In this document: one piece after another, positions 3,511-61,166 of the stretch
Layout of the letters: each line of letters begins with the position of its first letter
Position numbering within the stretch: position 1 is the first letter of the stretch
IMG/VR virus record: IMGVR_UViG_3300013212_000061
Location: 16,025 to 80,024 of that record
Source: a virus
Lineage: Duplodnaviria > Caudoviricetes
Direction: 5' to 3' (one strand)
DNA: 64,000 nt
Program-made: the position numbers and the translations under genes
The notes under the pieces: model-generated
What the model was told of the DNA's origin: nothing
The model's database searches: none
What the model saw: the letters and a program-made list of their open reading frames with translations, nothing else

Positions 3511-4593
3511 ATGATTCCAATCAAGCTTTTCGAAGAATTCTTATACGAAGAAAATCTTAAAAACAAATACGCTAAGAAAGTGGCATGGATTATGAAGTCT
3601 CATGATATTCATGCAACTTCAGGCGATGTTAATGGCCGCGAAAAGAAATACAATATCGCCGCTAAAGGTAACCTATTCTTAAACTATGCAACCAAAGAGG
3701 ACTTTAAAGATGATGCAGTTGTAGTACCTGGAAATGTTCCAATACTTAATTATGGAGGAGCAGTAGACCCGGAGGCTATTGGATTCTTAAAGAATAAAGG
3801 AATCAACAATGATAATCTATACAACAAAAGAGAATTACTTCCACTATCAGGAGACAAGATAAAATTTGCTAAAGCAGCCGCAAAATTTGATTGGCTTCCA
3901 AAAACAGTTTTTACAAAAGAGGATGCCATTAAAGGAGACGTTGGTTTCCCGGTAATTGCAAAAATAAAAGATGGACACAGTGGAGTTGGAATTCAAAGGT
4001 TTGACACCGCCAAAGAATTAGAAGAGAGCAAAGATACATTCGATATCTTTTGTCAATTTATAGATTTTGCAAGAGAATATAGAGTAATGTTTTGTAGAGA
4101 CAAGATATTTGTTATCAACGAAAGAGTACCTAGAATTGAGGACGACCGTTCAATCAAAACTAAAACTGCCGATGAAAAAATCAGTTTTACTTATGTTTAT
4201 CAAGACAGAAAGAAAGTTGACCCTGAATTTATTGAAAATGTGTTATCAATTTGCAAAGACGTTAAAACATTCTTAGACCTAGACTTATGGGCCCTAGATA
4301 TTGTAGTAGATAAAAAGGGTAAAATGTGGATTATGGAAACATCATCTGCTACCGGACTTGGAAGTGTTAAAATGTGCGAAGTTTATAAGGCAATGTATGA
4401 AGATTTTTACGGAGAAGCAATAGATGACGAATTCTTAGAGGACATTTACCTAAAATACGTAGTTCCTGGACATCAAAATTATTACCCAAAATTTAAAAAA
4501 GAAATCGATTCATCACAATGGCCGATGGATTACAAAATATTGACTGATCCGAAAGCAAAAGATGGATATAGATATTTTTTTAATTTAGATTAA
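3511..4593 (+). CDS. RimK-like ATP-grasp ligase with N-terminal capsid-targeting-like peptide
   Basis: GDKIKF, LPKT, FPVIAKIKDGHSGVGI, REYRV, ALDIVVD..MWIMETSSATG; starts MIPIKLFEEFLYE; GATATATAA at 3480. Confidence 0.75.
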   Translation: MIPIKLFEEFLYEENLKNKYAKKVAWIMKSHDIHATSGDVNGREKKYNIAAKGNLFLNYATKEDFKDDAVVVPGNVPILNYGGAVDPEAIGFLKNKGINNDNLYNKRELLPLSGDKIKFAKAAAKFDWLPKTVFTKEDAIKGDVGFPVIAKIKDGHSGVGIQRFDTAKELEESKDTFDIFCQFIDFAREYRVMFCRDKIFVINERVPRIEDDRSIKTKTADEKISFTYVYQDRKKVDPEFIENVLSICKDVKTFLDLDLWALDIVVDKKGKMWIMETSSATGLGSVKMCEVYKAMYEDFYGEAIDDEFLEDIYLKYVVPGHQNYYPKFKKEIDSSQWPMDYKILTDPKAKDGYRYFFNLD

Positions 4594-4594
4594 T

Positions 4595-5653
4595 ATGAAA
4601 ACAGGAATATTTAAAACATCGCTAAAGGAAAACGAAAAACGAATTCCAATCCACCCAGCCCATATTGAAAGGCTATCCGGAGAAATAATTAAAGAACTCT
4701 TATTTGAAGAGGGATATGGAGATGACTATGGCTATTCAGACTCTCAACTCGAACAAATGGGTTGCAAGTTTGCCAGTCGTGCGGATCTTTTTAAAGAGTG
4801 CAACATAATTATATTACCAAAACCACTCGCTGAAGACCTAAAACAAATACAGGATGGTGCAACTCTATGCGGTTGGACCCATGCAGTTCAACAGAGGGAC
4901 ATTACAGACATTGCTATCGAAAAAGGGTTAACACTTATTGCTTGGGAAGAGATGAACAGTGTTTCCAAAAACCAAAAGTTGCATACATTCTATCGGAACA
5001 ATGAACTTGCTGGATACGCTGGCGTTATACATTACCTACAATTAGCAGGTCTTGATGGACACTATGGAGACCGTAAGAAGGTTGTTATTTTTGGATTTGG
5101 TTCTGTAAGTAAAGGAGCAATCTATGCCCTACAGGGTAGAGGTTTTAATAACATTACCGTTTATACTCAAAGACCTACACACTTAGTTGCCGACAAAAAT
5201 CCTGACGTCTGGTACAAAAACTTTAATGACGATGACGTTTGGGAAGACATGTATTCTGCCAATATTATATTTAATGGAGTCTTACAGGATGTAAATAATC
5301 CACTAATGTTTATTAAAGATTTGAATCAATTGGATCAACTACGCAGAAACTGCGCAATTATCGATATCAGTTGTGACAGGGGAATGGGATTCTTTTTTGC
5401 AGAACCTACATCATTTGAAAATCCAATTATAAAATTAAGAAGAGGGATACAGTACTATTCAGTCGATCATACTCCAACATACTTATGGAATGCAGCATCT
5501 AGAGAAATCTCTGCCGCGCTTGTACCTTACTTAGATACTATAATAGAACCTCAAAAATGGAAAGACAATCCAGTTATTAATGCTTCTATCGATATTGCAT
5601 GTGGAACTATTATTAATCAAAACATAAACAAATTTCAAAAAAGGAATATATAA
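4595..5653 (+). CDS. N5-(carboxyethyl)ornithine synthase-like / AlaDH-PNT family NAD(P)-dependent dehydrogenase
   Basis: KENEKRIPIHP, NNELAGYAGV, Rossmann motif GFGSVSKGA, IIDISCD, YSVDHTPT. Confidence 0.8.
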   Translation: MKTGIFKTSLKENEKRIPIHPAHIERLSGEIIKELLFEEGYGDDYGYSDSQLEQMGCKFASRADLFKECNIIILPKPLAEDLKQIQDGATLCGWTHAVQQRDITDIAIEKGLTLIAWEEMNSVSKNQKLHTFYRNNELAGYAGVIHYLQLAGLDGHYGDRKKVVIFGFGSVSKGAIYALQGRGFNNITVYTQRPTHLVADKNPDVWYKNFNDDDVWEDMYSANIIFNGVLQDVNNPLMFIKDLNQLDQLRRNCAIIDISCDRGMGFFFAEPTSFENPIIKLRRGIQYYSVDHTPTYLWNAASREISAALVPYLDTIIEPQKWKDNPVINASIDIACGTIINQNINKFQKRNI

Positions 5654-5676
5654 ATAAAAAAAAATAAAAAACGATA

Positions 5677-6120
5677 ATAAAACACATTAAACTATACGAA
5701 GAATTTGTAAACGAAGACTTAGGAATAATTGACATTGCATTAGGAGCCGCAGTTGGAGTTGCAGGTCTATTGGCATTAGTTCAAGGTTTACCGGTAGTAG
5801 GTAGGGTTCTTGGAGATGCTGCTGAAGCATTAGCAAATAGGACTGAAGCAAAAGCTAAGCAAGCAGCAAAAGGTAAAAGAAAAGAATTAATTGGAGAAAT
5901 CATTAAGAAATTTGAAGGAGATACAAAACTTAAACAAATGTATCAAGACTTGCCTGAGTATGGCGCAATGGGAAGTAGTCAAAAAACACTTAAAGCCAAT
6001 AGTGAAAGAAGAAACCAATTAACAACAATCGGAAATTATATTAAATCTAAACTAACACAAGAGGAAATGGAATACTTTACCGATATTTCTTCTATGCTAA
6101 GAACTGGAGACGTAAGATAA
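5677..6120 (+). CDS. Hypothetical protein with capsid-targeting-like N-terminus; apparent ATA start
   Basis: The 5770 ORF frame extends upstream to ATA AAA CAC ATT AAA CTA TAC GAA GAA TTT (KHIKLYEEFVNE); in-frame stop at 5665, no ATG. Confidence 0.6.
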   Translation: MKHIKLYEEFVNEDLGIIDIALGAAVGVAGLLALVQGLPVVGRVLGDAAEALANRTEAKAKQAAKGKRKELIGEIIKKFEGDTKLKQMYQDLPEYGAMGSSQKTLKANSERRNQLTTIGNYIKSKLTQEEMEYFTDISSMLRTGDVR

Positions 6121-6137
6121 AAATATCATTTAATGTA

Positions 6138-6230
6138 ATGGACCCAGCGCCAAATTGCCTACCCTTCTTTATTGGAATAATTGGTATATTTTTTATAGTC
6201 ATGATACTTAATGAATTTAAAAAAAATTAA
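6138..6230 (+). CDS. 30-aa single-TM peptide
   Basis: MDPAPNCLPFFIGIIGIFFIVMILNEFKKN, read by hand. Confidence 0.4.
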   Translation: MDPAPNCLPFFIGIIGIFFIVMILNEFKKN

Positions 6231-6281
6231 ATAATTAACCTCTCCTCAGGATAGAATCGGAGGACCGACTCATACGAGTTT

Positions 6282-6308: not shown

Positions 6309-6312
6309 ATGT

Positions 6313-6340: not shown

Positions 6341-6364
6341 ACTTAAATAATTTAAACACTAAAT

Positions 6365-7123: not shown

Positions 7124-8320
7124 ATGACAATCGAAGAACTAATACTAAAACCAGAGAGTGATTTATCACAAGATGAAATTAAAACATTGGTTGAGCATTA
7201 TTCTATGTTGTCAGCAAAGTTTGGAGCCTATGAACAAGCAGTAAAAGTAATGCTTAACTCGATCTATGGCGCCTTCGGTAACAAATGGTTTCACTTTTTT
7301 AATATAGACATCGCAGAATCTATTACCCTACAGGGACAGTCTGCGATTCTATATTCTGAGAAGATACTAAATAAGTATTTTCAAGAGTTTTGGACTAAAG
7401 ACAAGGCAGTTCATGAGTTTTTTAACATTCAAGTTAAAAATAAACTTGTGCGACCTTCAGTAGTCTATATTGATACCGATTCTTGTTATGTACAGTTTGA
7501 AGAGATGTATGAATCTATTGAATGGCTTGGAGACAAGATATCGATTGACCAATTCATTATGAAATTGTATAACTTTAGACTTAAAGATTATATTTTTAAG
7601 TGTATGGAGAAATATGCAGAAGCCACTAATACTGAAAACTTCCTCCAGTTTGAATTGGAAACGATTGCCTACTCTGGAATTTGGTTAGCTAAGAAAAAAT
7701 ACCTGCAAAATATTGCTTGGGAAGATAAAATTGGAATTGAAGAACGTTACCCTTCACTTAAGAAGGTTAAAACTATTGGTTTTGATACAATTCAAAGTTC
7801 AACACCAGCTCTTGCAAGAAAGCAGTTGACCGATATTCTTAAATTGATTCTTTCAGAAAAACCTACAGCGTCCCTATTAAAAAGACTAGTAGATTATTTG
7901 AAACAATGTAAAAAAGAATTCCAATTAGCAAGTGTTGATGAGATATGTTTTAATAAAAGAACTAACAATATCGAAAAATATATTGTAGATGATACGGTAG
8001 AATTTCAATATGGTTTAAAATGTCCACCAAACGTTAAAGCTGCAGGATTTTATAATTTCTTAATGAATCAAAATCCAAAGTTCAAGAACAAGTATAAGAT
8101 GATTGGTAATGGTGAAAAGCTAAAACTATATCATTGTAAACATGGGACATGTGAAATATTTGCATACCAACCAGGAGCTCATCCTTATGAAATTGCCCCT
8201 CAAGTTGACTATGAAACACAATTCGAAAAGAGTGTTATAGATCCATTGAACCGGGTTCTTACCGCAGTTGGTTTACATACACTAAATAGAAACTTAATTT
8301 ATTCAACTTCATTATTTTAA
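7124..8320 (+). CDS. DNA polymerase family B, C-terminal half (gp43B-like)
   Basis: Motif B KVMLNSIYG, motif C YIDTDS, KKKY, C-terminal clamp-binding-like STSLF. Confidence 0.92.
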   Translation: MTIEELILKPESDLSQDEIKTLVEHYSMLSAKFGAYEQAVKVMLNSIYGAFGNKWFHFFNIDIAESITLQGQSAILYSEKILNKYFQEFWTKDKAVHEFFNIQVKNKLVRPSVVYIDTDSCYVQFEEMYESIEWLGDKISIDQFIMKLYNFRLKDYIFKCMEKYAEATNTENFLQFELETIAYSGIWLAKKKYLQNIAWEDKIGIEERYPSLKKVKTIGFDTIQSSTPALARKQLTDILKLILSEKPTASLLKRLVDYLKQCKKEFQLASVDEICFNKRTNNIEKYIVDDTVEFQYGLKCPPNVKAAGFYNFLMNQNPKFKNKYKMIGNGEKLKLYHCKHGTCEIFAYQPGAHPYEIAPQVDYETQFEKSVIDPLNRVLTAVGLHTLNRNLIYSTSLF

Positions 8321-11734: not shown

Positions 11735-12847
11735 ATGATTCAACAAGCAAATTTAAACAAGCCAGTTAAAAGAATTTGGATTCTAGGTGATATGCACTTA
11801 GGAGTCCGATCAAGTTCATTGGAATGGTTAGAAATGCAAAAGGATTTTTATGACAATCAATTTATTCCGACTCTATTAGAAAACTATGAAGATGGAGATA
11901 TATTGGTTCAAGTTGGAGACGCTTTCGATAATAGACAAAGTGTAAACATTAGAGTTCTACATTATGCAATCGATCTTTTTGAAAGACTTGGAAATATTCT
12001 ACCAACCCATATAATTTGTGGAAACCATGATATATGGGCAAAGAAAAGCAATGATGTAAGTTCTATTGATGCTCTTAAATGGATTCCAAATGTAAGCATC
12101 TATAAAGAACCTCAAACATTTCATTGGGGTGGAACAGAAGTCCTATTGATGCCATGGAGGAGAGACGTTGAACATGAAGTAGAAACTTTAGATTTGTTTC
12201 CAAACTCTGAAATTGTATTTTGCCATTCAGAAGTGCGAGGTATTAAATTAAATAAGAAGGTTGATAATCACCACGGTACTGATTCAACTACTTATGACCG
12301 ATTTACTGCAGTTTATTCAGGACATATTCATTATAGACAGCGCCGAGGCCAGTTGCGAATGGTTGGTACCCCTTATGAATTGACGCGATCTGATATGGAC
12401 AATACTAAAGGATTTGACCTTGTTAATTTAGAAGACATGCAGGAAACTTTCTTTGAGAATACAATATCACCAAAGTTTGTTAAATTTAATCTAACTAATC
12501 TTTACAATACACCTCTTGGAGAATTTAAAGATGCTATTAGAAATAATTTTGTAGACCTTTATGTCCCATCAAATATTGCAACTACATCTGCTCTTTCCAG
12601 ACTTATTAATAAAGTACAAACAATAAGTAGAAAAATAGACCCTAATATCTACGAGCAAGACACGTTCTTAGACGAGGATTCATACGACATGGACCAAATC
12701 GAAGACCTATACAAAAACTATAATATCTTACATCTTTGTAATATCTATGTAGACAATACAATGCATGCTGAAGATGTTAAAATACAAATCAAAGATCGTT
12801 TGAAGAAACTTCATGATTTTTATGCATATAATAATCAAATGGATTAA
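11735..12847 (+). CDS. Mre11/SbcD-like nuclease (gp47-like)
   Basis: DMHLG, GDAFD, GNHD, CH, SGHIH metallophosphoesterase motifs. Confidence 0.92.
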   Translation: MIQQANLNKPVKRIWILGDMHLGVRSSSLEWLEMQKDFYDNQFIPTLLENYEDGDILVQVGDAFDNRQSVNIRVLHYAIDLFERLGNILPTHIICGNHDIWAKKSNDVSSIDALKWIPNVSIYKEPQTFHWGGTEVLLMPWRRDVEHEVETLDLFPNSEIVFCHSEVRGIKLNKKVDNHHGTDSTTYDRFTAVYSGHIHYRQRRGQLRMVGTPYELTRSDMDNTKGFDLVNLEDMQETFFENTISPKFVKFNLTNLYNTPLGEFKDAIRNNFVDLYVPSNIATTSALSRLINKVQTISRKIDPNIYEQDTFLDEDSYDMDQIEDLYKNYNILHLCNIYVDNTMHAEDVKIQIKDRLKKLHDFYAYNNQMD

Positions 12848-12849
12848 AT

Positions 12850-14523
12850 ATGAAAATACAAAGTATTGAACTAAAAAACTTTGCATCTTACGGTAATCAA
12901 GTTCAAACTATAAAATTTGAAGATGATAAATCTGAGCTATTTTTAACCTTAGGAAAAAATGGTGAAGGCAAAACAACTATTGCTAACGCGATAGTTTTTG
13001 CGCTTTACGGTAAAGTTGAAGGTGTTAAAATGTCCGACCTTCCAAATAGAATTAATAAAGAACTTTGGGTCAGAATAACCTTACAATGTAAAAGTGTTGA
13101 GGTTGTTATTGAGCGTGGTTTGGCTCCTGGAATTTTTAAAGTTCTCCTTAATGGAATTGAATTCGACAAGGCAGGAAAACGTTCAGTACAAGAATACCTT
13201 GAAGAGGAAATCTTTGGTATTCCATACCATGTATTTAAAAACATTATCATTCTCTCTGTTAATGACTTTAAGTCTTTTTTAACAATGAGTAATAGTGACA
13301 AGCGCCAGATTATTGATAAAATGTTTGGATTTTCTATCTTAAATGATATGCAAAATGCACTTAAAGAAGAGAGAAGAACTCTTAAAAGCGATATTGATGC
13401 ATTTGGCAGAGAGTTAGGCCAAATAAATGAGAATATAAAACAAGTTCAAATTAAGCTAGACCAGTTGATGGTTGAAAGCCAAGAAAAGGACAAAAAGAAA
13501 ATTCAACATCTTAAAGATTCTCTTGTTAAATATGACGAGAATAAAAAGAAGTTGGAAGAGGCCCAGGGTAAAATCACTGCAAGCATTAAGGGTTTAAATT
13601 TGGATCTACAATCAAATCAGTCGACCGAAACTGAATTAAAGTTTAAAATAGCAGAACTTAAAAAGAAATTGGAGTTGTATGAAAATAATTCATGTCCAAC
13701 TTGCGAACATGAGCTTACTGGAGAGTTTCACAACTCTAGACGGGATGAACTTGAATCTGAACTAAAAGATATTCCAAATCAACTAGAAGAGGTTACACAA
13801 GAAGTGTCAACTATTAAAACACAAATCAGCGATCTTAGAGATAAAGATAGTGTTGTTCGTGATAGGGTATCTTCATTAAATATAAACATTGCAAACTTTA
13901 AAAAAGAACTCTTAGCAATTTCAGCATCAATTAAAGGTACAACTGATTTTTCTCACATGGAGCAAATTATATCTGACTTTGAAACACAAGAGCTGGAGAA
14001 GGGAAATCTTAAAGATACTAAAACTATTGACTACAATTTCTTAGAAATGGTTGAAGAGGTTCTTGGAGAGGATGGAGTTAAAAATCTTGCAATCAAGACT
14101 ATATTACCCGGGTTGAATGCAAATATCGCAGCTATGACCCAGACAATGCACCTTCACTTCCACCTCCGATTTGATGAGAAATTCAATTGTATTATCAATC
14201 ACTTAGGAGAGGAAATAAATCCAATGACCCTTTCAACAGGTGAACGAAAGAAGGCAGACTTTATAATTATTATTGCAATTATAAAAATTTTAAAATTAAG
14301 ATTCCCACAACTAAACCTGTTATTCTTAGATGAGTTGCTAAGTTCTGTCGATCAAGATGGAATCCACAATATCCTAAAAATCTTAAGTGGAGTAATTAAA
14401 GAGAGCAAAATTAACTGTTTTGTTATCAACCACACCCCCTTACCTCATGAAATCTTTGACAAAAAAATTCAAATCTTCAGAGAAAATGGATTCTCCAAAT
14501 TTAATATTGAGCTAATAGAATAG
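12850..14523 (+). CDS. Rad50/SbcC-like ATPase (gp46-like)
   Basis: GKNGEGKTT, coiled coil with CPTC hook, LSTGE signature, FLDE. Confidence 0.93.
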   Translation: MKIQSIELKNFASYGNQVQTIKFEDDKSELFLTLGKNGEGKTTIANAIVFALYGKVEGVKMSDLPNRINKELWVRITLQCKSVEVVIERGLAPGIFKVLLNGIEFDKAGKRSVQEYLEEEIFGIPYHVFKNIIILSVNDFKSFLTMSNSDKRQIIDKMFGFSILNDMQNALKEERRTLKSDIDAFGRELGQINENIKQVQIKLDQLMVESQEKDKKKIQHLKDSLVKYDENKKKLEEAQGKITASIKGLNLDLQSNQSTETELKFKIAELKKKLELYENNSCPTCEHELTGEFHNSRRDELESELKDIPNQLEEVTQEVSTIKTQISDLRDKDSVVRDRVSSLNINIANFKKELLAISASIKGTTDFSHMEQIISDFETQELEKGNLKDTKTIDYNFLEMVEEVLGEDGVKNLAIKTILPGLNANIAAMTQTMHLHFHLRFDEKFNCIINHLGEEINPMTLSTGERKKADFIIIIAIIKILKLRFPQLNLLFLDELLSSVDQDGIHNILKILSGVIKESKINCFVINHTPLPHEIFDKKIQIFRENGFSKFNIELIE

Positions 14524-14535
14524 GATATATAATCC

Positions 14536-17031
14536 ATGGCAAGTTACAATCAAAAATTTAATTCCGATGATAGTGTAGTTAGACACATCATTATAGGTTT
14601 TTTAGCCGATTTGAATACCAAATTGTATTTTCATCGACAAATAACCAATGACGAAAGAGTAGTAGTGGATGTTCCATTTTATTACTCAATAACAGGGGAT
14701 GACCAATTCCTTAGAGACAATTTTCTATTTTCAACACCATCAGGACCAAATTGTACTCCAGATAAAGCGCATGCGGATGCAAACTATGATGTTGTACCAA
14801 GAGGAATTGTAAACTTTTCAGGACTTGCTATTGATTCTGGAAAATTAGTCAATAAAAGAACTACAGGTCAGTACACTAAAATGAACTCTGAAGGGATCAT
14901 TGAATCTTATGTTGCTGAATTTGACATGATTCCAATAACTATTAGTTTTGATGTTGAAATCCTAGTATCTTCAACACTTGATTCTTTTAAAATCACTGAG
15001 GCAATAATCAAAAGAATGTACAAATCCAACTATTTTAATGTTGAAGTTGGGCATTTAGAGGAGGGTAATTATAGAATCGCATCTTATTATGCACTACCTG
15101 ATGATTACACTCTTGAAAGACCTGTTGGATTTACATATGATGACAAAGACCGATTTAAAATAACTTTTCCTATTGAAGTTAATTCATTTATACCTTCATT
15201 TCATTTAGGTAATGAAGAAGGTTTTGGATCAAATCAACTTTCTACTGAGCGTTTTGCTGGAAACAGAATGTTTACTATAGATGCTATTATAAACTCTACT
15301 GATGTTAATCAAATTACTTCCGGACAATATTTCGGAGATATTGTAGAAGTTCCAGGAACATCGCAACCTGGCGGAAGTTCTCTATTTGGAACCCAAGGTC
15401 CTGTAGGACCTGCAGGGGATAGAGGACCTCAAGGACGTCAAGGAACGCAAGGAGCACAAGGTACTCAAGGTTACCAAGGTACCCAAGGAAACCAAGGAAC
15501 ACAAGGTTACCAAGGAGACCAAGGAACACAAGGTTACCAAGGAGACCAGGGAACTCAAGGTTACCAAGGAGACCAGGGAACTCAAGGTTACCAAGGAGAC
15601 CAGGGAACTCAAGGAACACAAGGTACTCAAGGAGACCAAGGAACACAAGGTTACCAAGGAGACCAGGGAACTCAAGGTTACCAGGGAGACCAAGGAACAC
15701 AAGGTTACCAAGGAGACCAGGGAACTCAAGGTTACCAGGGAGACCAGGGAACTCAAGGTACTCAAGGAGACCAAGGAACCCAGGGATTCCAAGGTGCTCA
15801 AGGATTCCAAGGTGCTCAAGGAGTTCAAGGTGCTCAAGGTGCTCAAGGAGTTCAAGGTGCTCAAGGAGTTCAAGGAGTTCAAGGTGCTCAAGGAGTTCAA
15901 GGTGCTCAAGGTGCTCAAGGAGTTCAAGGTGCCCAAGGAGTTCAAGGCTTACAGGGAATTCAAGGTGCCCAAGGATTTCAAGGTGCTCAAGGAGTTCAAG
16001 GCTTACAGGGAGTTCAAGGTGCTCAAGGACGCCAAGGTTCTCAAGGGTTTCAAGGACAAAAAGGTGAAACTGGATCTTTCGGTGGTGCAACATTTGAGTT
16101 CTATTATGATAATGACACAACAGATCCCGTAAATTTGACACCAGGGCATGTAAGAATTAATGAATTTGGTACGGAAATGTACATTTCATATTTAGACATT
16201 AACTCTATAAGTATTCAATCATTTTTACAAACAATTGATGATTCAACTTCTCAAATTAAAGGTTTATTTAAACTAACATCATATACTGACCCGTTACTTT
16301 ATGCAATATTTAATATAGTAGGTAGCCATACAGAGCATACAGACCATTTCAATGTTCCAGTTGCATTTATTTCCAGTCCTATTGCTGGAACTGTTCCTCC
16401 CGACCAATTAGCATATATTACTTTCCAAAGAACAGGAGACATTGGAGATAGAGGACCTCAAGGTTTTCAAGGTGCCCAAGGAACGCGAGGTTTTCAAGGA
16501 GCCCAAGGTTTTCAAGGAGTACAAGGAGCCCAAGGTTTTCAGGGAATACAAGGAGTACAGGGTGCCCAAGGAACTCAAGGTTTCCAGGGAATACAAGGAA
16601 CTCAAGGAACTCAAGGAGTACAAGGATTCCAAGGTGCTCAAGGAGTACAAGGATTCCAAGGACCTCAAGGTTTTCAAGGAGCCCAAGGTACTCAAGGAAC
16701 TGGAGCCCAAGGGTTTCAAGGTGTTCAAGGACCCCAAAGTTCAGGTGCAGGTGGAAGTATTAAATCAATAAATGTAATAAGTAGCAACACCACCGCCGGA
16801 AGCAATGCAAGTACTGAATATACATATCTTGCTTCAGGAACTATTGATATTACTCTTCCAACTGCCGTAGGAAATACAAATAACTATTACATTAAAAATA
16901 CCGGAACCGGCACAGTAACAATTAAAACAACTTCAACTGAAACAATAGATGGAAGTTTAACAGCCCCATTGCGGGTTCAATACACAGCATTAACATTAGT
17001 AAGCGATGGTACAAACTGGTTTATAATATAA
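14536..17031 (+). CDS. gp15-like tail terminator domain fused to collagen-like fibre domains
   Basis: N-terminal ~230 aa resemble T4 gp15 (VPFYY, VPRG, PITISFDVEI); two (Gly-X-Gln)n tracts; fibre-type C-terminus; late promoter at 14524. Confidence 0.65.
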   Translation: MASYNQKFNSDDSVVRHIIIGFLADLNTKLYFHRQITNDERVVVDVPFYYSITGDDQFLRDNFLFSTPSGPNCTPDKAHADANYDVVPRGIVNFSGLAIDSGKLVNKRTTGQYTKMNSEGIIESYVAEFDMIPITISFDVEILVSSTLDSFKITEAIIKRMYKSNYFNVEVGHLEEGNYRIASYYALPDDYTLERPVGFTYDDKDRFKITFPIEVNSFIPSFHLGNEEGFGSNQLSTERFAGNRMFTIDAIINSTDVNQITSGQYFGDIVEVPGTSQPGGSSLFGTQGPVGPAGDRGPQGRQGTQGAQGTQGYQGTQGNQGTQGYQGDQGTQGYQGDQGTQGYQGDQGTQGYQGDQGTQGTQGTQGDQGTQGYQGDQGTQGYQGDQGTQGYQGDQGTQGYQGDQGTQGTQGDQGTQGFQGAQGFQGAQGVQGAQGAQGVQGAQGVQGVQGAQGVQGAQGAQGVQGAQGVQGLQGIQGAQGFQGAQGVQGLQGVQGAQGRQGSQGFQGQKGETGSFGGATFEFYYDNDTTDPVNLTPGHVRINEFGTEMYISYLDINSISIQSFLQTIDDSTSQIKGLFKLTSYTDPLLYAIFNIVGSHTEHTDHFNVPVAFISSPIAGTVPPDQLAYITFQRTGDIGDRGPQGFQGAQGTRGFQGAQGFQGVQGAQGFQGIQGVQGAQGTQGFQGIQGTQGTQGVQGFQGAQGVQGFQGPQGFQGAQGTQGTGAQGFQGVQGPQSSGAGGSIKSINVISSNTTAGSNASTEYTYLASGTIDITLPTAVGNTNNYYIKNTGTGTVTIKTTSTETIDGSLTAPLRVQYTALTLVSDGTNWFII
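15388..16070 (+). repeat. Collagen-coding 9-bp tandem repeats (GGN NNN CAA), tract 1
   Basis: GTQGYQGDQ and GAQGVQ units. Confidence 0.95.
16444..16737 (+). repeat. Collagen-coding repeats, tract 2
   Basis: GFQGAQGVQ units. Confidence 0.9.
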
Positions 17032-21785: not shown

Positions 21786-22157
21786 ATGGCTAAAACTAAA
21801 AACTATTTAAACAATAAGGACCTTCATGATGCAATGAGTGAATCCAAAAATCTGGATAAACTAACTCCAACTGCAGAGAAAATGTTAATCCTATTAGCAG
21901 AACGTGCAATTAATAGAATGTCCTATGTTAATAAAGACGACCGAGATGATTGTCTTCAGTTTGCAATGTTAGACCTCTTAAAATACTGGAGAGGATTTAA
22001 CCCAGTATATCCAAACGCATTTGCCTATTTTACAGAAATTGCAAAGAGAGGATATGCAAAAGGTTGGAATAAAATTCACCCACAAAAATACAAAGGTACC
22101 ATCTCTATGAGCAGAACATCAGGTGATGATGATAGCGGCGGGATTTATTCTATTTAA
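21786..22157 (+). CDS. Late-transcription sigma factor (gp55-like)
   Basis: NYLNNKDL, F.P..PNAFAYFTEIA pattern of the gp55 family. Confidence 0.8.
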   Translation: MAKTKNYLNNKDLHDAMSESKNLDKLTPTAEKMLILLAERAINRMSYVNKDDRDDCLQFAMLDLLKYWRGFNPVYPNAFAYFTEIAKRGYAKGWNKIHPQKYKGTISMSRTSGDDDSGGIYSI

Positions 22158-39829: not shown

Positions 39830-40586
39830 TAAAGGTCTCTGATACTACGTTATATTTGGTCGTTCTTTGTTTCATAAGTATACCTCCAGAGACCTTTTTA
39901 ATTTCAATAAGGAAATAAAGATATATAGAATAACGACTAAATATAATTATTAACTTATGATAAAATATCACTATGTGTATAGAATAACTAACACAAAACT
40001 CAACAAACACTATTATGGTTCAAGAACATCTCAAATAGAACCTGCAAAAGATTTGGGACATAAGTACTTTTCAAGTTCTTTTGATAAAGAATTTATCAAA
40101 GACCAAAAGAACAATCCACAGGATTATAAATACGTGATAGTTTCTAAATTTAATTCACGAAAAGAGGCTCTAGAATTAGAAGTTAAACTACACACAAAAT
40201 TTAACGTAGGAGTTAACAATAATTTTTATAATAAAGCTAGAGCAACTTCTTCAAAATTCACAATGGAAGGAACCAAAATATCGGAAGAAACTAGACTAAA
40301 GCATATTGGCGAAAATAATGGAATGTATGCTAAAAATCATACAATTGAATCTAGAATTAAAATGAGTCAATCTAGTAAAAATCCATCCGAAGCTACTCGA
40401 AAAAAAATGTCTGAAAATCATGCGGACGTTTCAGGAGATAAAAATCCAATGTATAATAAAAATCATACAATTGAATCTAGAATTAAAATGTCAAAGCCAA
40501 AGACCGAAGAACATCGTCGCAAAATGTCCGAAGCGGCAAAAAGAAGATACTCTAAATAAAAAGACATATACGATTTATTGGTATAA
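39800..40586 (+). mobile_element. Endonuclease cassette inserted into the terminase 3' end
   Basis: Terminase ends DIYSLLD*; an orphan DIYDLLV* lies at 40563-40586; left boundary approximate. Confidence 0.65.
39957..40559 (+). CDS. GIY-YIG homing endonuclease with NUMOD3 repeats
   Basis: YVYRITN..YYG.R..Y..SS, E, YN; two N.MY.KNHT.ESR.KMS repeats. Confidence 0.85.
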   Translation: MIKYHYVYRITNTKLNKHYYGSRTSQIEPAKDLGHKYFSSSFDKEFIKDQKNNPQDYKYVIVSKFNSRKEALELEVKLHTKFNVGVNNNFYNKARATSSKFTMEGTKISEETRLKHIGENNGMYAKNHTIESRIKMSQSSKNPSEATRKKMSENHADVSGDKNPMYNKNHTIESRIKMSKPKTEEHRRKMSEAAKRRYSK

Positions 40587-48465: not shown

Positions 48466-49056
48466 ATGAAGAAAATTAAACTATATGAACAATTTATAGA
48501 AGAGAGAAGCGGAGAGCTTTTTAATCCTAAGAAAAACAAACCAGTCATATTAAAACCGACTAAAGATACAGAATTAGAAAAGGAATTCTTTAATCTTATT
48601 AGTACAGCGTACTCTGAGATTGGAGGACATATCAAGGTCCAATCACCTAGTGATGTATTTAAAGACCCTGATTGGAACTATTGGGAAGGAATAGATATTC
48701 ACGGTAGTAATGATTTTGATGTTATCATGTTTGGTGAAAAAACCCGATTTGGACTTAAATTCTCAGGAGTTGGTCATGATGGAACCAAAGATGCTAAGAG
48801 AGACTATATGGATAGAAGAGGAAAGGAATTAAAACAACTTGGATATTACATAGAAGTTTCTGGTAAAATTGCAGAAATCTTAATCAATAAGTATCAAGTA
48901 CCTATTGTAACTGACCAAGAAACGGTAGAAAAGGTACTGGGTAAAAAAGTTGATTGGATTGGAAATCTAGATGGTGGAACTGGAGGAGGTTGGTATAGCC
49001 GAACTATTGGTGGAGGAGCTCATGAAAAGATAATGTTAGGTAAACCAAAGGTATAA
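48466..49056 (+). CDS. Hypothetical protein with capsid-targeting-like N-terminus
   Basis: MKKIKLYEQFIEE. Confidence 0.65.
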   Translation: MKKIKLYEQFIEERSGELFNPKKNKPVILKPTKDTELEKEFFNLISTAYSEIGGHIKVQSPSDVFKDPDWNYWEGIDIHGSNDFDVIMFGEKTRFGLKFSGVGHDGTKDAKRDYMDRRGKELKQLGYYIEVSGKIAEILINKYQVPIVTDQETVEKVLGKKVDWIGNLDGGTGGGWYSRTIGGGAHEKIMLGKPKV

Positions 49057-49057: not shown

Positions 49058-49573
49058 ATGAAAGCACTATTTTTACACGGTCTTGAAAGTAAACCCAAAA
49101 ACCAAAAGTCAGAGTTTTTAGCAAAGTTTGATGCCCAATGTCCCGCGATGGACTATAAAAATCCTGGTCTATTTAATGAAATCTTGACAAAGATTCAGAA
49201 TGACAGACCAGAAGTTTTAATTGGAAGTTCTATGGGAGGATGGTTTGCATATTGTCTTTCAACAATCACTGGAATACCAACAATTCTTTTTAATCCAGCA
49301 GTTCATAGTCGTTCAATAGAACCCGTTGTTCAAATTGGAAGTATGCAAGCAAATCATACTGTCATTCTCGGTAGAAAAGACGACTTAATTAACCCTGAAG
49401 AGACACTTGAATGGATTAAAAAAAATCCAGGACATTTCAAAGTCAACTTTGAAAACAATGGACATCAAACTCCAATAAACATATTTAAAAAATATGTCTT
49501 AAATTCTGGTTATCTTAACGAAATGCAAAGAATTAAAATGTTTGAGGAATTTAATAATTTAGATTTAACATAA
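49058..49573 (+). CDS. Alpha/beta hydrolase (YqiA/UPF0227-like esterase)
   Basis: FLHGLES, GSSMGG, FNPA, DD, GH; C-terminal LNE-MQRIKMFEEF. Confidence 0.85.
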   Translation: MKALFLHGLESKPKNQKSEFLAKFDAQCPAMDYKNPGLFNEILTKIQNDRPEVLIGSSMGGWFAYCLSTITGIPTILFNPAVHSRSIEPVVQIGSMQANHTVILGRKDDLINPEETLEWIKKNPGHFKVNFENNGHQTPINIFKKYVLNSGYLNEMQRIKMFEEFNNLDLT

Positions 49574-56194: not shown

Positions 56195-57319
56195 ATGGAA
56201 AACAATAACTCAGTTTGCTACATAGCAAAGATTAACGAAGTAAGAGCAATCGAAGGAGCAGATAACATCGAATTAGTTATCGCAGGTGGATGGAATGCCA
56301 TCACAAAGAAAGGTGAATTTAGAGAAGGTTCCCTAACAGTAATTGCAACAACAGATGCGGTAATACCTGAAGCCCTTTCTGAAAAAATGGGAGTTGCAAA
56401 CTACCTAAGAAAAGGTACAAGAGTCCGAACTGTAAAATTACGTGGAGTCTATTCAGAATGTTTAATCATTCCAGTTACATACATTAGAGCAAAATCTATC
56501 GTAGAAGGAAAAGATTTAATGGAAGAGTTAGGTATCACTAAATACGAGCCACCAGTTAAACAAATCCAATTAGCGTCTGGTAGAAAAATCAAATGGAGAG
56601 ATAACCAAAACTTCCATATCTACTACAAATTTCCAAACTTGAAAAATGTGGCTGGATTATTTACTGAAGAGGATGAGGTTCAAATCACCAGAAAAATCCA
56701 CGGTACTAATGCACGTTATGGTATTGTAAGGAAATCTAAATTGACCTTTTGGGACAGAGTAAGAAAATTCTTAAGAATTGCTGACGAATGGGTTAACTAT
56801 GAGTACATCTACGGTTCTCATAATTGTGAGAAGGGTTCAGATACTCAAGGATTCTATTCAACTGACGTTTGGAGAACTATCGCGGAGGAATATGGTATTA
56901 AAAAAAGACTTTGGAACCAGGCCAAAAAATACAGCCCTGAAGATTTGGGTTCTGGATTGGTTCTTTACGGAGAGATTTACGGAGCTGGAATTCAAAAGAA
57001 CTACGAATATGGTTTAACCGACATTAAGTTTGTTGGATTCGATATTACTGTAGATGGAAAATATCTAACACCAGAAACTACTCACTTAGTTACTTCTTGT
57101 GACTTAGAACTTACTCACGTTGAAGTACTTTACAATGGACCATGGTCTCAAGAGGTACAAGACCGTTATGTATTTAATAACTTCATTGAGGGTACTAAAG
57201 TTCCGCATGAAGGAATTGTAATCAAGCACGTCTCTGGTGAAAGAAATAAAGTTGCGAAAGTAATTAACCCAGACTACTTGATTTATGGTGAAAAGAATAA
57301 CGTAGGAGATTCTCATTAA
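56195..57319 (+). CDS. RNA ligase, DRB0094 family
   Basis: N-terminal IEGAD.IEL OB domain, KLRGVYSE, KIHGTN, YGEIYG, FDI, EGIV, K.INPDYL. Confidence 0.88.
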   Translation: MENNNSVCYIAKINEVRAIEGADNIELVIAGGWNAITKKGEFREGSLTVIATTDAVIPEALSEKMGVANYLRKGTRVRTVKLRGVYSECLIIPVTYIRAKSIVEGKDLMEELGITKYEPPVKQIQLASGRKIKWRDNQNFHIYYKFPNLKNVAGLFTEEDEVQITRKIHGTNARYGIVRKSKLTFWDRVRKFLRIADEWVNYEYIYGSHNCEKGSDTQGFYSTDVWRTIAEEYGIKKRLWNQAKKYSPEDLGSGLVLYGEIYGAGIQKNYEYGLTDIKFVGFDITVDGKYLTPETTHLVTSCDLELTHVEVLYNGPWSQEVQDRYVFNNFIEGTKVPHEGIVIKHVSGERNKVAKVINPDYLIYGEKNNVGDSH

Positions 57320-57320
57320 T

Positions 57321-57776
57321 ATGGCATTAGACTACAAAAGAGTACTCTTAGGAATGCTAGGAGAAAAGATAGTTGCAAAACACTTTAGGGATTCCGGACA
57401 TCAGGTCGAGGAATCCCTAAATGTTTTTGATTCGGATAAAGATATGATAATTGATGGGAATAATGTTGAAGTAAAAACAAATGCACCCTTAATTTATTAC
57501 GATTCGTTTTCATTTGCAAAGGGTCAATACAATAAGATTATGAATTCTCATCGAGTTTATTGGGTTTCTGTTCCATTACAAACTCAAGAGGACCAGTTCG
57601 CTGGATGTGTTTTTGAAATGGACCCTAAGGTTGCAAAACTACATACGATTAAATTTAATTCAGGAACAACTGCAATAGGACTTCGGAGACAACAGGAGGG
57701 AATGAAGGTTATCCATAAGATTGAAGACCCTGCCCTACTAAAACAACTTAAAGAATTATCGTCTTCGTATTTATAG
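57321..57776 (+). CDS. PD-(D/E)XK-like hypothetical nuclease
   Basis: LGEKIV, DM....VEVK. Confidence 0.45.
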   Translation: MALDYKRVLLGMLGEKIVAKHFRDSGHQVEESLNVFDSDKDMIIDGNNVEVKTNAPLIYYDSFSFAKGQYNKIMNSHRVYWVSVPLQTQEDQFAGCVFEMDPKVAKLHTIKFNSGTTAIGLRRQQEGMKVIHKIEDPALLKQLKELSSSYL

Positions 57777-57805
57777 ATATATAATACATAAAAATATATA
57801 TAGGT

Positions 57806-58258
57806 ATGAAACATATTAAACTATTTGAAGAATTTACCGCAAATCAAATTAAATGTGATAAATGCGGTTGGAAATGGAGACTTGAAGACGGAGGTAACGA
57901 CGTTTTTTTATGCAAATGCGGACATGATAACACTCCAGAATTTGTACAAGAGGCAGAGAAAAAAGAGATGGACAAAGGTCCACTAGATAACGCCGGAATT
58001 AATAAGGCGCTTGATAAAAAAGCAAAAGCATCTGGAGTTCCAATAGGAATTATTAGAGCAGTGATGCGAAGAGGAATGGGAGCTTGGAACAGCAGTCACA
58101 GGGCTGGAGTTCCACAAGAGGCTTGGGGATATGCCCGGGTTGGAGCTTTTTTAGAAAAAGGTGAAGGAACATGGCAAAAAGCAGATGCTGATTTGGCAAA
58201 AGAAGTTCGAGATGGAGGACATGACAAAAAACTACCATGGAAACCTAAAGAAGACTAA
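57806..58258 (+). CDS. Tagged protein with Zn ribbon and DUF5824-like domain
   Basis: MKHIKLFEEF; CDKC..CKC; RRGMGAW..SHR.G...AWGYARV.AF. Confidence 0.65.
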   Translation: MKHIKLFEEFTANQIKCDKCGWKWRLEDGGNDVFLCKCGHDNTPEFVQEAEKKEMDKGPLDNAGINKALDKKAKASGVPIGIIRAVMRRGMGAWNSSHRAGVPQEAWGYARVGAFLEKGEGTWQKADADLAKEVRDGGHDKKLPWKPKED

Positions 58259-58381
58259 AGCAATATAGAGACTTACTTAATGTTTCATAAGATTTGTCGT
58301 TACTTCTTTAAAATAAAGGTAAGTCTCTTATTTTTATTTAGATATATAATATAACGACAAATCTAAATAAATTTTAATCTT

Positions 58382-58909
58382 ATGAAACACAAGCACCACA
58401 TCATACCAAAGCATATGGGAGGTACTAATGACCCTGAAAATATTATTGAATTAACTATTGAAGAGCACGCCAAAGCGCATCAATTACTATGGGAAGAACA
58501 TGGTAAGAGAGAAGATTGGCTAGCATATCACGGATTATCTAAGTTAATTGGTAAAGAAGAACTTTTAAAAGAAGTACTTTCAATGGCCGGAAAAAAAGGA
58601 GGAAGCAATGGTAAAGGAGTTACTGGCAATAGAAAAAACGGAGCAATCGCAAATTGGGAAAAAAATAAAGATTTAATTCTTAAAACACTTTATGAAAATG
58701 GTAAAATGTATGGACATTTAGGTGGAGCGCCTAAAGACAAATGGATATGGATAAATAATAATAAAGAAGCTAAAAAAGTGTTAAAATCTGATGCAATACC
58801 ATTTGGCTGGAAAAGAGGAAGACTACCATTATCCAATGAAACCAAAGAAAAATTAAAAGAAAGTTGTAAAGGTATTAATACAGGTACTAAAAGAACTAAT
58901 AAAGATTAA
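58382..58909 (+). CDS. HNH homing endonuclease (Mob-like)
   Basis: HKHHIIPKHMGG..D..N.I.LT.EEH..AH.LL; C-terminal WINN..GWKRGR. Confidence 0.85.
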   Translation: MKHKHHIIPKHMGGTNDPENIIELTIEEHAKAHQLLWEEHGKREDWLAYHGLSKLIGKEELLKEVLSMAGKKGGSNGKGVTGNRKNGAIANWEKNKDLILKTLYENGKMYGHLGGAPKDKWIWINNNKEAKKVLKSDAIPFGWKRGRLPLSNETKEKLKESCKGINTGTKRTNKD

Positions 58910-58910
58910 C

Positions 58911-59294
58911 ATGAAACATATAAAACTTTTTGAGGAATTCTTGAACGAAGCTGAAGAGACCTATAATGACTATCCAGCAGCCGCAAAGGAGAATGCAAAG
59001 AAGGCACTGGATTGGAGAGACCAATACGGTCGAGATATTGTAACTGCAGGTACTCCAGTTGGATGGCAGCGGGCTAATCAATTGGCAAAAGGTGAAAAAC
59101 TTTCTGCTGATGTTGTTTCCCGAATGGCACAATTTAATCGACACCGAAAAAACTCAAAGATATCTCCAGAACACAAATCAGAACCATGGAAAGACAATGG
59201 ATATTTAAGTTTTTTGTTATGGGGCGGTAAAGAAGGCGTTGATTGGGCTATAGAAAAAATGAAGGAAATACGAAAAAAAGAAGGTGATAGATAG
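58911..59294 (+). CDS. Tagged hypothetical protein
   Basis: MKHIKLFEEFLNE; YNDYP, GTPVGWQRANQLA, LLWGG. Confidence 0.65.
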   Translation: MKHIKLFEEFLNEAEETYNDYPAAAKENAKKALDWRDQYGRDIVTAGTPVGWQRANQLAKGEKLSADVVSRMAQFNRHRKNSKISPEHKSEPWKDNGYLSFLLWGGKEGVDWAIEKMKEIRKKEGDR

Positions 59295-59334
59295 ATTTTG
59301 AATATATTACTTGGATTCTTTAGATATATACTAT

Positions 59335-60189
59335 ATGGCAAAATGTAAAATATGTAAAGAAGAAGACCAAAGTAAATCAAAGTCTTTTAGATGTGAAAAA
59401 TGTACTGAAGCATCTTTAAAATGTGAAGGTTGTGGAAACAAGAAATCGAAATCAACTTATCGTTTTTGTAGAAATTGTATAGGATCTGATTTAACATATA
59501 GGAATAATTTAAGTGCATCTTTGAAAGGAAAGACTTCTTGGGCTAAAGGATTAACTAAAGAAACAAATAATTCTATTAAAAGAAGTTCTGAATCTAAAAA
59601 AGGTGTATTATTATCAGATTCTCATAAAGCAAAAATATCTAGTAGTATGACTGGAAAACATGCAGGTGCTAAAAATCCTTTTTATGGAAAAACACACACT
59701 GATGAATTAAAAGTCAAATGGTCTGCTGAAAGATCCGGAAAATCAATTCATACCGACGAGACAAAAGAAAGAATGAGAAATAAAATGCTAGAAAGATATG
59801 AAAATGGTGAAATTCAAAAATCACCAAAATCTAACTGGTATGAATTTCAAGGACTTAAGTGTCAAGGAAGAACTGAATTAAAATGGGTAGAAAGAAACTT
59901 TGATAGAATAATTAATAGTCGAATTTACATAAGTACACCACATGGAACCTATATTGGAGATTTTGAAACTAATGATTCATTAATAGAAGTTAAATCATTT
60001 TACACATTTAGCGTAATTAGTCAAAATCAACTTGATAAAATAATGTGGATAGACAAAAATATTAAAAAGATTATTTTTGCAGTTAAAAAAGATAATAAAT
60101 TCTATGAATTTAGTTATAACAACGAAGGAGTTGATTGGGCTATGAAAAAAATGGACGAAATAAAAAAAGAAAATAATGAAAAAATTTAA
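59335..60189 (+). CDS. Putative homing endonuclease: Zn finger + NUMOD3 + PD-(D/E)XK domain
   Basis: Four CxxC pairs, NPFYGKTHT, YIGDF...IEVKS; ATG at 59335 after GATATATA. Confidence 0.7.
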   Translation: MAKCKICKEEDQSKSKSFRCEKCTEASLKCEGCGNKKSKSTYRFCRNCIGSDLTYRNNLSASLKGKTSWAKGLTKETNNSIKRSSESKKGVLLSDSHKAKISSSMTGKHAGAKNPFYGKTHTDELKVKWSAERSGKSIHTDETKERMRNKMLERYENGEIQKSPKSNWYEFQGLKCQGRTELKWVERNFDRIINSRIYISTPHGTYIGDFETNDSLIEVKSFYTFSVISQNQLDKIMWIDKNIKKIIFAVKKDNKFYEFSYNNEGVDWAMKKMDEIKKENNEKI

Positions 60190-60622
60190 ACTATTTGAAG
60201 AATTTAAAAATTCTACAGCTTGTCCAGTTCCAACTAGAGACCTTGAAGTTAATACTAAAAACAGAGACCGTGCAATTAAGGCAGATCACATTGAATATGG
60301 TCCCTTAAATGTTGATGAACCTGCTGGATTTTGGGAACATATTGCAGACCACTGGAATACCAGTGTAGAAGCTGCAAAGAAATCATTATGTGCAAACTGT
60401 GCTGCATTTGATGTTTCACCAAGAATGAAAGAATGTATGCCCGGAGAATTAAGCGACCCGGACGGTGAATTAGGATATTGTTGGATGCACCAGTTTAAAT
60501 GTCATTCTGCAAGAACATGTTATACATGGGCAAAAGGTGGACCAATATCAACTGACAAAATCTCATATGATTGGCAAGATAAAAATCAAGATGCCGCGAT
60601 GAATAAAAATCCTATAAAATAA
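60176..60622 (+). CDS. Tagged Cys-rich protein
   Basis: MKKFKLFEEF; CANC..C..GYC..KC...TC..W. Confidence 0.65.
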   Translation: MKKFKLFEEFKNSTACPVPTRDLEVNTKNRDRAIKADHIEYGPLNVDEPAGFWEHIADHWNTSVEAAKKSLCANCAAFDVSPRMKECMPGELSDPDGELGYCWMHQFKCHSARTCYTWAKGGPISTDKISYDWQDKNQDAAMNKNPIK

Positions 60623-60623
60623 T

Positions 60624-61166
60624 ATGAAAAGAATTAAATTATTTGAAGAGTTCTTGAATGAAAAGGAGAATGTAACGCATGATTTTAATTGTGCAATGTT
60701 ATACTTTGACTTTCCAGCAATGGCAACCTTACATCAATCAATAAGACCTGAAGATATTTTCACAGTAGAAGCTGATGAAAGTTACGGTCTTGAAGACGAA
60801 CCACACTGTACCCTCCTATACGGACTTCATCCAGAAGTAACCGTTGATCAGGTTGCAGATAAACTAAAAGGGATCCAATTTGGAGAATGTAAAGCCTACA
60901 ACCTTTCTCTTTTTGAAAATGATAAATATGATGTCTTGAAATTTGACATGGAAGGTGATAATCTTCATAATGCAAATAAGGCACTTAGCGAACTTCCATA
61001 TACTACGGACTATCCGGATTATATGCCCCACATGACTGTTGCGTATTTAAAACCTGGCAAAGGTTCTGAGTATTTGAAAATATTAAATTCGCAAGAGCAT
61101 TCACTAAAACCACTGCATATTACTTACAGTATGACAGATGGCTCTAAACAAAAAATAGATTTATAA
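60624..61166 (+). CDS. 2H phosphoesterase resembling T4 gp57B/Acb1 anti-CBASS nuclease, tagged
   Basis: Two HxT motifs (PHCTLLYG and DYPDYMPHMTVAY); starts MKRIKLFEEFLNE. Confidence 0.75.
   Translation: MKRIKLFEEFLNEKENVTHDFNCAMLYFDFPAMATLHQSIRPEDIFTVEADESYGLEDEPHCTLLYGLHPEVTVDQVADKLKGIQFGECKAYNLSLFENDKYDVLKFDMEGDNLHNANKALSELPYTTDYPDYMPHMTVAYLKPGKGSEYLKILNSQEHSLKPLHITYSMTDGSKQKIDL

Follow-up and report, generated by a model that had tools for sequence, protein, structure and literature searches.

The internal proteins IPI, IPII and IPIII of bacteriophage T4 carry a capsid targeting sequence (Mullaney and Black 1996, cited in PMC9026906). This T4 tag is established, and so are the anti-restriction roles of Ip1-3 and the use of the tag for finding the ip genes of T-even phages (PMC3012670, PMC9026906 and PMC12373910). 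For packaging, the first ten residues of IPIII are enough; residues 4 and 7 serve chiefly for targeting and residues 8 and 10 for processing, and gp21 cuts T4 substrates after L/I-x-E (PMC9026906). In a 64,000-nucleotide stretch of DNA from a tailed virus (Duplodnaviria; Caudoviricetes; IMG/VR record IMGVR_UViG_3300013212_000061), hereafter the window, eight open reading frames (ORFs) on the plus strand start with M-K-x-[IV]-K-L-F-E-[EQ]-F, and a ninth copy of this peptide is found at a C-terminus. The full tag, M-K-x-[IV]-K-L-F-E-[EQ]-F-[LIV]-x-E, is probably this lineage's version of the T4 capsid targeting sequence. What is known is the T4 tag; what is new is the predicted variant of this lineage, in an uncultured large phage. 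The window covers bases 16025-80024 of a viral contig of 80,024 bases, whose estimated completeness is 28%; its G+C content is about 33% and the plus strand holds nearly all genes.

Packaged proteins are known from other giant phages. The phiKZ-like and SPN3US-like phages have many head-internal proteins, whose propeptides are cut after a glutamate by a diverged homologue of gp21; unlike here, where one address peptide is shared, the available part of the source describes none there, and the cut motif is a different one (PMC9026906). Polyvalent and MuF-type head proteins carry effector domains, which are transported in the head and reach the host with the DNA; injected signal-degrading enzymes have been proposed within the polyvalent proteins of jumbo phages (PMC7824862). 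There, cargo and head protein form one covalent fusion, whereas here it would be a free protein with a predicted removable tag. The terms 'internal protein', 'propeptide' and 'N-terminal signal' do not occur in the available part of that comparative review of 224 jumbo phages (PMC7824862). A literature search outside subscription journals and supplements returned no paper with 'KLFEEF' and no related paper on a capsid targeting sequence in metagenomes.

The cargo-loading peptides of encapsulins are similar in that a short terminal peptide serves as the address which sends unrelated cargo into an HK97-fold shell. Unlike the tag described here, they are usually C-terminal and are not removed by a protease, and they belong to bacterial compartments that involve neither DNA nor delivery.

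The tag in the window

The sequence-only reading of this DNA had listed eight ORFs with a shared N-terminus, and all eight were recovered on the plus strand by ORF translation and a six-frame scan, the copies being confined to these same frames, with none in other frames or on the minus strand. The DNA pattern AARNNNTWYGARSARTTY has nine matches, on the plus strand only, compared to a mean of 0.11 in 100 shuffled sequences (largest count 1). The ninth match, unreported before, encodes IKMFEEF at 49532, in the C-terminal part of ORF 49058-49573. The tag is conserved at the protein level, since synonymous codons vary freely inside it (leucine is encoded by TTA, CTA or CTT, and phenylalanine by TTT and TTC about equally).

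One short terminal peptide is thus found on unrelated proteins, whose bodies belong to different Pfam families or to none. ORF 3511-4593 (plus strand, like all those that follow; 360 residues) has the tag MIPIKLFEEFLYE at 3511-3549, which ends with L-Y-E. It had been read as an ATP-grasp enzyme; Pfam matches to this fold are present, but with 23.2 bits for a curated cut-off of 26.2 the protein can only be called ATP-grasp-like. ORF 5677-6120 (147 residues) has the tag (I)KHIKLYEEFVNE at 5677-5715, followed by a hydrophobic stretch. It has ATA where the other tags have ATG, with no ATG, GTG or TTG upstream in frame, and either starts at ATA or has a damaged start; tblastn found no orthologue in two relatives, G009 (87% complete, with a protease 92% identical to that of the window) and G003 (complete, 256 kb). 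ORF 24910-25251 (113 residues, isoelectric point 4.2, tag MKIIKTFEEFTSSLQE) encodes a small acidic protein between the portal and the prohead protease genes. ORF 48466-49056 (196 residues, tag MKKIKLYEQFIEE) has no family. The ORF behind it, 49058-49573, encodes a UPF0227-type hydrolase with the C-terminal copy at 49514-49570, where ...YLNE is followed by MQRIKMFEEFNNLDLT. ORF 57806-58258 (150 residues, tag MKHIKLFEEFTAN, starting MKHIKLFEEF) combines a Cys4 ribbon and a DUF5824 domain, and ORF 58911-59294 (127 residues, tag MKHIKLFEEFLNE) has a helical body. ORF 60176-60622 (148 residues, seven of them cysteines) has no family; its tag, MKKFKLFEEFKNS, starts MKKFKLFEEF and has no adjacent [LIVM]xE. 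The last of the eight, ORF 60624-61166 (180 residues, tag MKRIKLFEEFLNE), encodes a predicted Acb1-like 2H phosphodiesterase. A blastn search with 57000-62000 against phage records gave only four short matches.

Further copies were found in the rest of the contig, in relatives and in viral contigs. Beyond the window, the contig has a tagged ORF of 171 residues, an internal copy in an ORF of 203 residues and a tag-only ORF of 23 codons. The latter, at about 2170 (contig numbering, as for the next two), lies just upstream of an ORF at 2249-4120 for a 623-residue cytidylyltransferase-domain protein, which has a tag-like C-terminal tail, ..TNE/IMTFKQYINKDI. The next ORF, 4144-5685, starts with a short form of the length of the T4 tag, MNFNEFLNE.

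Likeness to the T4 tag

The limits of the tag were drawn from 146 tagged proteins: 8 from the window, 35 from the two nearly whole relatives and 103 from viral contigs. The latter were collected with a DNA pattern that stops at the second phenylalanine, and the next three residues were part of no search pattern. The motif [LIVM]xE stands directly after the tag in 104 of the 146 proteins; among 485 untagged ORFs of the two relatives, 21 have it at the corresponding residues (Fisher p 3e-62). Past the glutamate of this motif conservation vanishes, no residue being found in more than 28 of the 146. Because [LIVM]-x-E is conserved and nothing is beyond it, the conserved unit has 13 residues and ends on the glutamate, as the T4 tag does. 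The motif ends at residue 13 in five of the eight window tags and at residue 16 in one more, ORF 24910-25251, where it is the first [LIVM]xE.

The T4 record (NC_000866) shows that ipII and ipIII start with MKTYQEFIAE, gp61.1 with MKTFKEFIKE and ipI with MKTFKEFTSTTTPVSTITE, i.e. MKTFKEFTST..ITE. When the two tags are aligned on the cut site, K-L-F-E-E-F-L-N-E agrees with K-T-Y-Q-E-F-I-A-E at exactly the four functional positions of T4. The positions aligned to T4 residues 4, 7, 8 and 10 are also the best conserved of the tag (F/Y in 144, F/Y/W in 146, I/V/L in 107 and E in 108 of the 146 proteins). The likeness to the N-terminal capsid targeting sequence of the T4 internal proteins, to which the earlier reading had pointed, is borne out by these aligned residues and by the [LIVM]xE at the end of the conservation. 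In AlphaFold2 models the tag lies outside the folded bodies, with a predicted local distance difference test score (pLDDT) below 50 for residues 1-18 of the phosphodiesterase and of about 51 for residues 1-10 of ORF 58911-59294.

As in T4, a short N-terminal peptide is borne by otherwise unrelated proteins; it has the order aromatic, x, acidic, F at the targeting positions and then [LIV]-x-E, the cut site of gp21, and it comes together with a gp21-family protease, a scaffold, a gp20 portal and a gp23 capsid protein, the tagged genes lying in variable arrays. Unlike in T4, the tag has three more residues (K-L-F-E-E-F is preceded by M-K-x-[IV]) and a lineage-specific wording, the protease and the scaffold are one protein of 639 residues, and about 5-9% of the genes are tagged, compared to three or four genes in T4. 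The cargo of T4 consists of small basic inhibitors, whereas here it includes sizeable enzymes. C-terminal and internal copies also distinguish the tag of this lineage, which is known from sequence alone.

Prohead protease, scaffold and head genes

Pfam and PHROG scans of 73 ORFs of the window revealed T4-type head and replication genes, which include (plus strand) a gp20-type portal protein (23290-24888), a prohead protease (S77, gp21-type) fused to a repeat-rich scaffold (25322-27241, 639 residues) and a gp23-type major capsid protein (27403-28905), whose N-terminal region has the [LI]xE sites INE, IIE and LYE. A large terminase, tail sheath, tail tube, UvsX, helicase, clamp loader and ribonucleotide reductase are also encoded.

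A gp21-family protease and a scaffolding core, with which a T4-type tag is expected to work, are both provided by ORF 25322-27241: its N-terminal part is the S77 protease (PF03420, E 1e-11; PHROG 207, E 2.5e-44) and a long repeat-rich region follows. The catalytic-type blocks GELDHP and SSRAAG are invariant across ten protease homologues, as is the glutamate of an RVNE-S junction at the end of the protease domain. The fusion contains 33 [LIVM]xE sites, for 11.5 expected, and its scaffold part carries repeats of the type Y-S-E-H-I-A-E. ORF-300 of Tenacibaculum phage PTm1 is annotated as the same protease-scaffold fusion; in phage PAU the two are separate genes.

Among phage records, the nearest capsid protein is that of a 462-kb uncultured phage (52.5% identity), followed by those of Prevotella Lak megaphages, phage PAU and Tenacibaculum phage PTm1. 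The host of PAU has been reclassified as Sphingobacterium, a member of the Bacteroidetes (PMC3738902).

The tagged acidic protein encoded between the portal and the protease (113-125 residues) is found in the window and in eight relatives (G009, G003, G016, G004, G014, G020, G017 and G006). T4 has its core proteins gp67 and gp68 at the same place, in the portal-protease interval.

Distribution of the tag

In viral contigs the full tag pattern is matched at least 130 times, which corresponds to at least 105 distinct proteins; 596 Gb of prokaryote genomes yielded two matches, both in contigs of metagenome-assembled genomes. One of these, CAIWBA010000291.1, belongs to a Bacteroidetes bin. Its size of 254 kb suggests that a jumbo phage of this lineage was placed in the same bin as a Bacteroidetes genome, which hints weakly at the host.

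Tagged genes number 8 of 91 in this contig, 19 of 278 in G009 and 15 of 298 in G003 (about 5-9%), and 12 of the 15-16 N-terminal copies of G003 lie at 187-200 kb. The tag goes along with the protease-scaffold fusion: 16 of the 21 tag-bearing contigs of at least 100 kb encode a homologue of the fusion, and in these 16 the strict pattern has 90 matches, for one in the reversed control. The two near-complete genomes that lack such a homologue have one strict match each.

A general form of the tag, K-x-[FY]-x-[EQ]-F-[LIVMF]-x-E (0-1 match in reversed controls), has three sites in T4 (ipII, ipIII and gp61.1) and 6, 6 and 7 in three uncultured phages of 462-642 kb, where 17 of the 19 sites are N-terminal (e.g., M-I-KKYLQFIKE and MKYI-KEYEEFILE). 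PTm1 has two matches to this form. Cultured Sphingomonas phage PAU (JQ362498.1) has 16 ORFs that start with MKT[LI]xx[LIM][YF]E, for none in the reversed control, and according to the annotation of the record this PAU tag is also borne by the scaffold protein gp152 and by the 'internal capsid protein' gp154. Salicola phage SCTP-2 has no match to the general motif, and its homologue of ORF 58911-59294 lacks the tag. The genes next to that homologue, 458 and 460, share an N-terminal peptide (..RKYMSLLENAE and ..KNYLKLLENTE) which may be the tag of another lineage.

Cargo proteins

When 138 tagged proteins were compared to Pfam, 96 had no family. The others include ten Acb1/2H proteins, seven with DUF5824, six ATP-grasp-like proteins, five GNATs, four Tad3 proteins, two with DUF5661, one zeta/AAA_33 kinase and one ankyrin protein. 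The Tad3-like cargo is found in four relatives, with E values from 3e-15 to 5e-22. ORFs 48466-49056, 60176-60622, 5677-6120 and 24910-25251 gave nothing credible in Pfam at E values up to 1, and a protein atlas search with ORF 60176-60622 returned only unnamed viral clusters.

ORF 60624-61166 is predicted to be a 2H phosphodiesterase, Acb1-like, on the basis of its sequence and of its modelled fold. It scores 31.2 bits with the Pfam Acb1 model PF23474 (curated cut-off 27), and the two H-x-T motifs, in HCTLLYG and HMTVAY, are invariant in 11 sequences. Its AlphaFold2 model (pLDDT 82.7) matches Usb1, the phosphodiesterase of phage BCSR5 and Acb1 of phage FBB1 (7T27) with E values from 1.5e-5 to 7e-5, and several 2H subfamilies receive similar ranks in this fold search. 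When the PDB sequences were searched with a profile made from the alignment of the phosphodiesterase, nothing matched at E 0.01.

Tagless homologues, internal and C-terminal copies

Among 120 homologues of the body of ORF 58911-59294, 57 start with the canonical tag; others have looser versions of it, and the tagless ones begin at the body. The tagless homologue P0030 starts with M-AEETYNDYP, which is the exact end that would be left by cutting MKHIKLFEEFLNE/AEETYNDYP. P0030 also has an internal copy, MKHVKLFESFVNE, between two domains, and internal copies sit at domain joints. Eleven distinct relatives with 74-90% identity have the C-terminal copy, YL[NT]E followed by MQRIKMFEEF, and homologues with 41-54% identity lack it. 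Whether the copy is N-terminal, internal or C-terminal, a cut-type motif stands between the tag and the cargo. A cut motif on the cargo side is, as judged from the sequences, what a removable address needs, and not what a translation-start signal needs.

Segments homologous to the body of ORF 58911-59294 are present within ORFs of haloarchaeal viruses, Roseobacter phages and one actinophage, where the annotations are prohead protease, portal-MuF fusion, capsid protein or maturation protease. The portal-MuF and prohead-protease ORFs of the haloarchaeal viruses that contain it recall the MuF-type head proteins. This recurrence in head ORFs may be an independent sign that the protein belongs to the head interior. 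Its AlphaFold2 model (pLDDT 90.7) has no Foldseek match in the PDB at E 0.001 or better, and the best match of a wide VIA-align search has a Z of 5.0, among helical bundles, so that no fold can be recognised.

Promoter motif and timing

The motif [GA]ATATATA[AGT] occurs 25 times on the plus strand and seven times on the minus strand. It is located about 12-45 nt upstream of the genes for the portal, protease, tail tube, fibre and other structural proteins (120 nt for the capsid gene). The promoter-like GATATATAA at 3480-3488 (plus strand) precedes tagged ORF 3511-4593, and the same motif is found at 5645, 57776, 23259 (portal), 25289 (protease), 27283 (capsid) and 42922 (tail tube). A gp55-like late sigma factor is encoded at 21786-22157 on the plus strand (PHROG 234, E 1.3e-8). 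Based on the genes that it precedes and on this gp55 homologue, the motif would represent the late promoter class.

The sequence-only reading had placed most of the tagged ORFs behind late promoters. This holds for those that start at 3511, 5677 and 57806, where the motif is 25-32 nt upstream, and weakly for 48466, with a weak copy 12 nt upstream, but not for the others: ORF 24910-25251 has only TATAAATA, 10 nt upstream, and those starting at 58911, 60176 and 60624 have no motif of their own. When the three genomes are taken together, 14 of 42 tagged genes have the motif in the 60 nt that precede them, compared to 83 of 625 untagged ones (p 0.0012), and many tagged genes lie in arrays behind one motif site.

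Proposed mechanism and its alternatives

The tagged proteins would be produced along with those of the head. The two aromatic residues of the tag and the acidic residues that flank them would bind the assembling prohead core formed by the protease-scaffold fusion, and the cargo would be enclosed as the shell forms. The gp21-type protease would then cut after the glutamate of [LIV]-x-E, which would remove the tag and free the mature protein inside the head, and the mature cargo would leave the head with the DNA at infection. Core binding, cleavage, packaging, ejection and a role in host takeover or against host defences are the steps that we infer from the T4 precedent and from the comparisons above.

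It can be hypothesised that the tag mimics one unit of the scaffold repeats. The seven-residue pattern [FY]-x-E-[FYH]-[LIVM]-x-E is found in both, with four tags and four repeats in the contig, seven and four in G009 and seven and three in G003, for 0.2-1.3 in shuffled sequences; G009 additionally has two tags with mis-called starts and one other match. This pattern was drawn post hoc, when both the tag and the repeat were known. The prediction of a complex between the fusion (alignment of 10 rows) and the tagged phosphodiesterase (11 rows) gave a score of 0.00 in both runs, which speaks neither for nor against binding. A bolder proposal, which we consider tentatively and which is more doubtful than not, is that the tag works as a 'load and cut' module in any position (N-terminal, C-terminal or between domains), which imitates one unit of the scaffold repeat, [FY]-x-E-[FYH]-[LIV]-x-E, and has its cut site always on the cargo side. 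In jumbo phages of Bacteroidetes-type hosts, it might pre-load dozens of enzymes, among them degraders or sponges of the signals of Thoeris and of CBASS (cyclic-oligonucleotide-based antiphage signalling systems), and thereby disarm signalling immunity before the transcription of any phage gene, and the wording of the tag in each lineage might co-evolve with the scaffold.

Several observations weigh against the proposed mechanism. The adjacent cut motif is missing in 42 of the 146 tags, and in the window the ORFs that start at 57806 and 60176 have no [LIVM]xE within 30 residues. Only three of the eight tagged ORFs (four with the weak site) have a late-type promoter of their own. LR756500.1, the closest huge-phage relative according to the capsid protein, has no ORF between portal and protease, and the tagged ORF is likewise absent from this interval in five more distant relatives. 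The likeness of tag and scaffold rests on the post hoc pattern, and under an unbiased 10-residue profile the best scaffold window is only in 12th place in this contig and is not among the first 12 in two relatives. As for the cargo, the Acb1 of T4 itself is an ordinary early protein that is not known to be packaged, and we know of no precedent for an injected phosphodiesterase. For this phage and its relatives, neither a virion proteome nor an assay of cleavage or packaging was found.

It is rather unlikely that the tag targets the prohead core but that the cargo serves inside the head, for example in assembly, size control or DNA condensation, or is degraded and expelled like scaffold fragments, instead of acting as effectors. 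The conserved acidic tagged protein at the place of gp67 and gp68 would fit such a role, and so would the T4 core proteins, which are cut to fragments that mostly exit the head (PMC9026906), and the scaffold protein of PAU, which itself bears the PAU tag. However, the catalytic motifs are intact in many cargo enzymes (2H phosphodiesterase, GNATs, ATP-grasp, kinase), for which no part in assembly is apparent, Tad3-like proteins are present in four relatives, and T4 tag-fused proteins are delivered into the host (PMC9026906). It seems improbable that the tag is unrelated to the capsid, and is instead a leader for translation start or stability, an address for a different partner or compartment, or a handle for recombination by which accessory genes are shuffled. 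Little DNA identity is left for recombination when synonymous codons vary, which points to selection on the protein, even if the tagged genes cluster in arrays (as at 187-200 kb in G003), the contig has a tag-only mini-ORF and such hot spots are known at the ip loci of T-even phages (PMC12373910). The C-terminal and internal copies rule out an effect of start-codon context. Binding of the tag to the core is indeed only inferred, but without a link to the capsid the cut-type motif, the core-position protein, the association with the protease-scaffold fusion and the residue match to T4 would all be coincidences.

Chance likeness, or a recent duplication of the 5' end of one gene, has next to no probability. 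Lysine-rich N-termini are common in A+T-rich genomes, but the shuffle test (nine matches for 0.11 expected) and the reversed control (90 strict matches in 16 genomes for one) refute this explanation, and the bodies are unrelated, the tag being present on at least 105 distinct proteins of viral contigs.

If the tag works as in T4, as we consider probable for a capsid targeting sequence of this type, the packaged proteins of an uncultured branch of jumbo and huge phages could be listed from their genomes. This set would represent about 5-9% of the genes, most of them of unknown function. Among its members would be an Acb1-like 2H phosphodiesterase and Tad3-like proteins, of kinds that are known to overcome signalling immunity, as well as GNATs, ATP-grasp proteins and a kinase. 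With such proteins delivered ready-made, the strategy of timing would differ from that of the anti-defence proteins studied to date, which are products of early genes. PAU can be cultured and has its own version of the tag on 16 ORFs, so that the idea is open to a test at the bench. Large capsids might also be loaded with foreign proteins by means of the tag.

Other features of the contig

The family-B DNA polymerase is split between ORFs 14-703 and 7124-8320, about 6.4 kb apart (PHROG 262, positions 263-495 and 491-843). The genes between the two halves include those for ribonucleotide reductase, the tagged ATP-grasp-like protein and an alanine-dehydrogenase-like protein. Three homing-endonuclease-like genes (GIY-YIG/NUMOD3 and HNH types; 39957-40559, 58382-58909 and 59311-60189) are placed between the terminase and sheath genes and among the tagged genes, and two of the three lie behind a late-type promoter motif.

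The ORF at 14536-17031 encodes a protein of 831 residues with a T4 gp15-like N-terminus (below the cut-off) and long collagen-triple-helix repeats (PF01391, 169.5 bits). That at 62268-62861 encodes a membrane protein with two glycine-transporter domains (PF03458, 158.6 bits), which is unusual for a phage; the gene array of the plus strand ends beyond 62.9 kb.

Outside the window, the contig encodes a myo-inositol-1-phosphate synthase domain at 11972-13159 and a 5-hmdU DNA kinase helical domain at 13633-14817 (contig numbering; PF18723, E 1e-7). The latter suggests that the DNA of this phage contains hypermodified thymidine.

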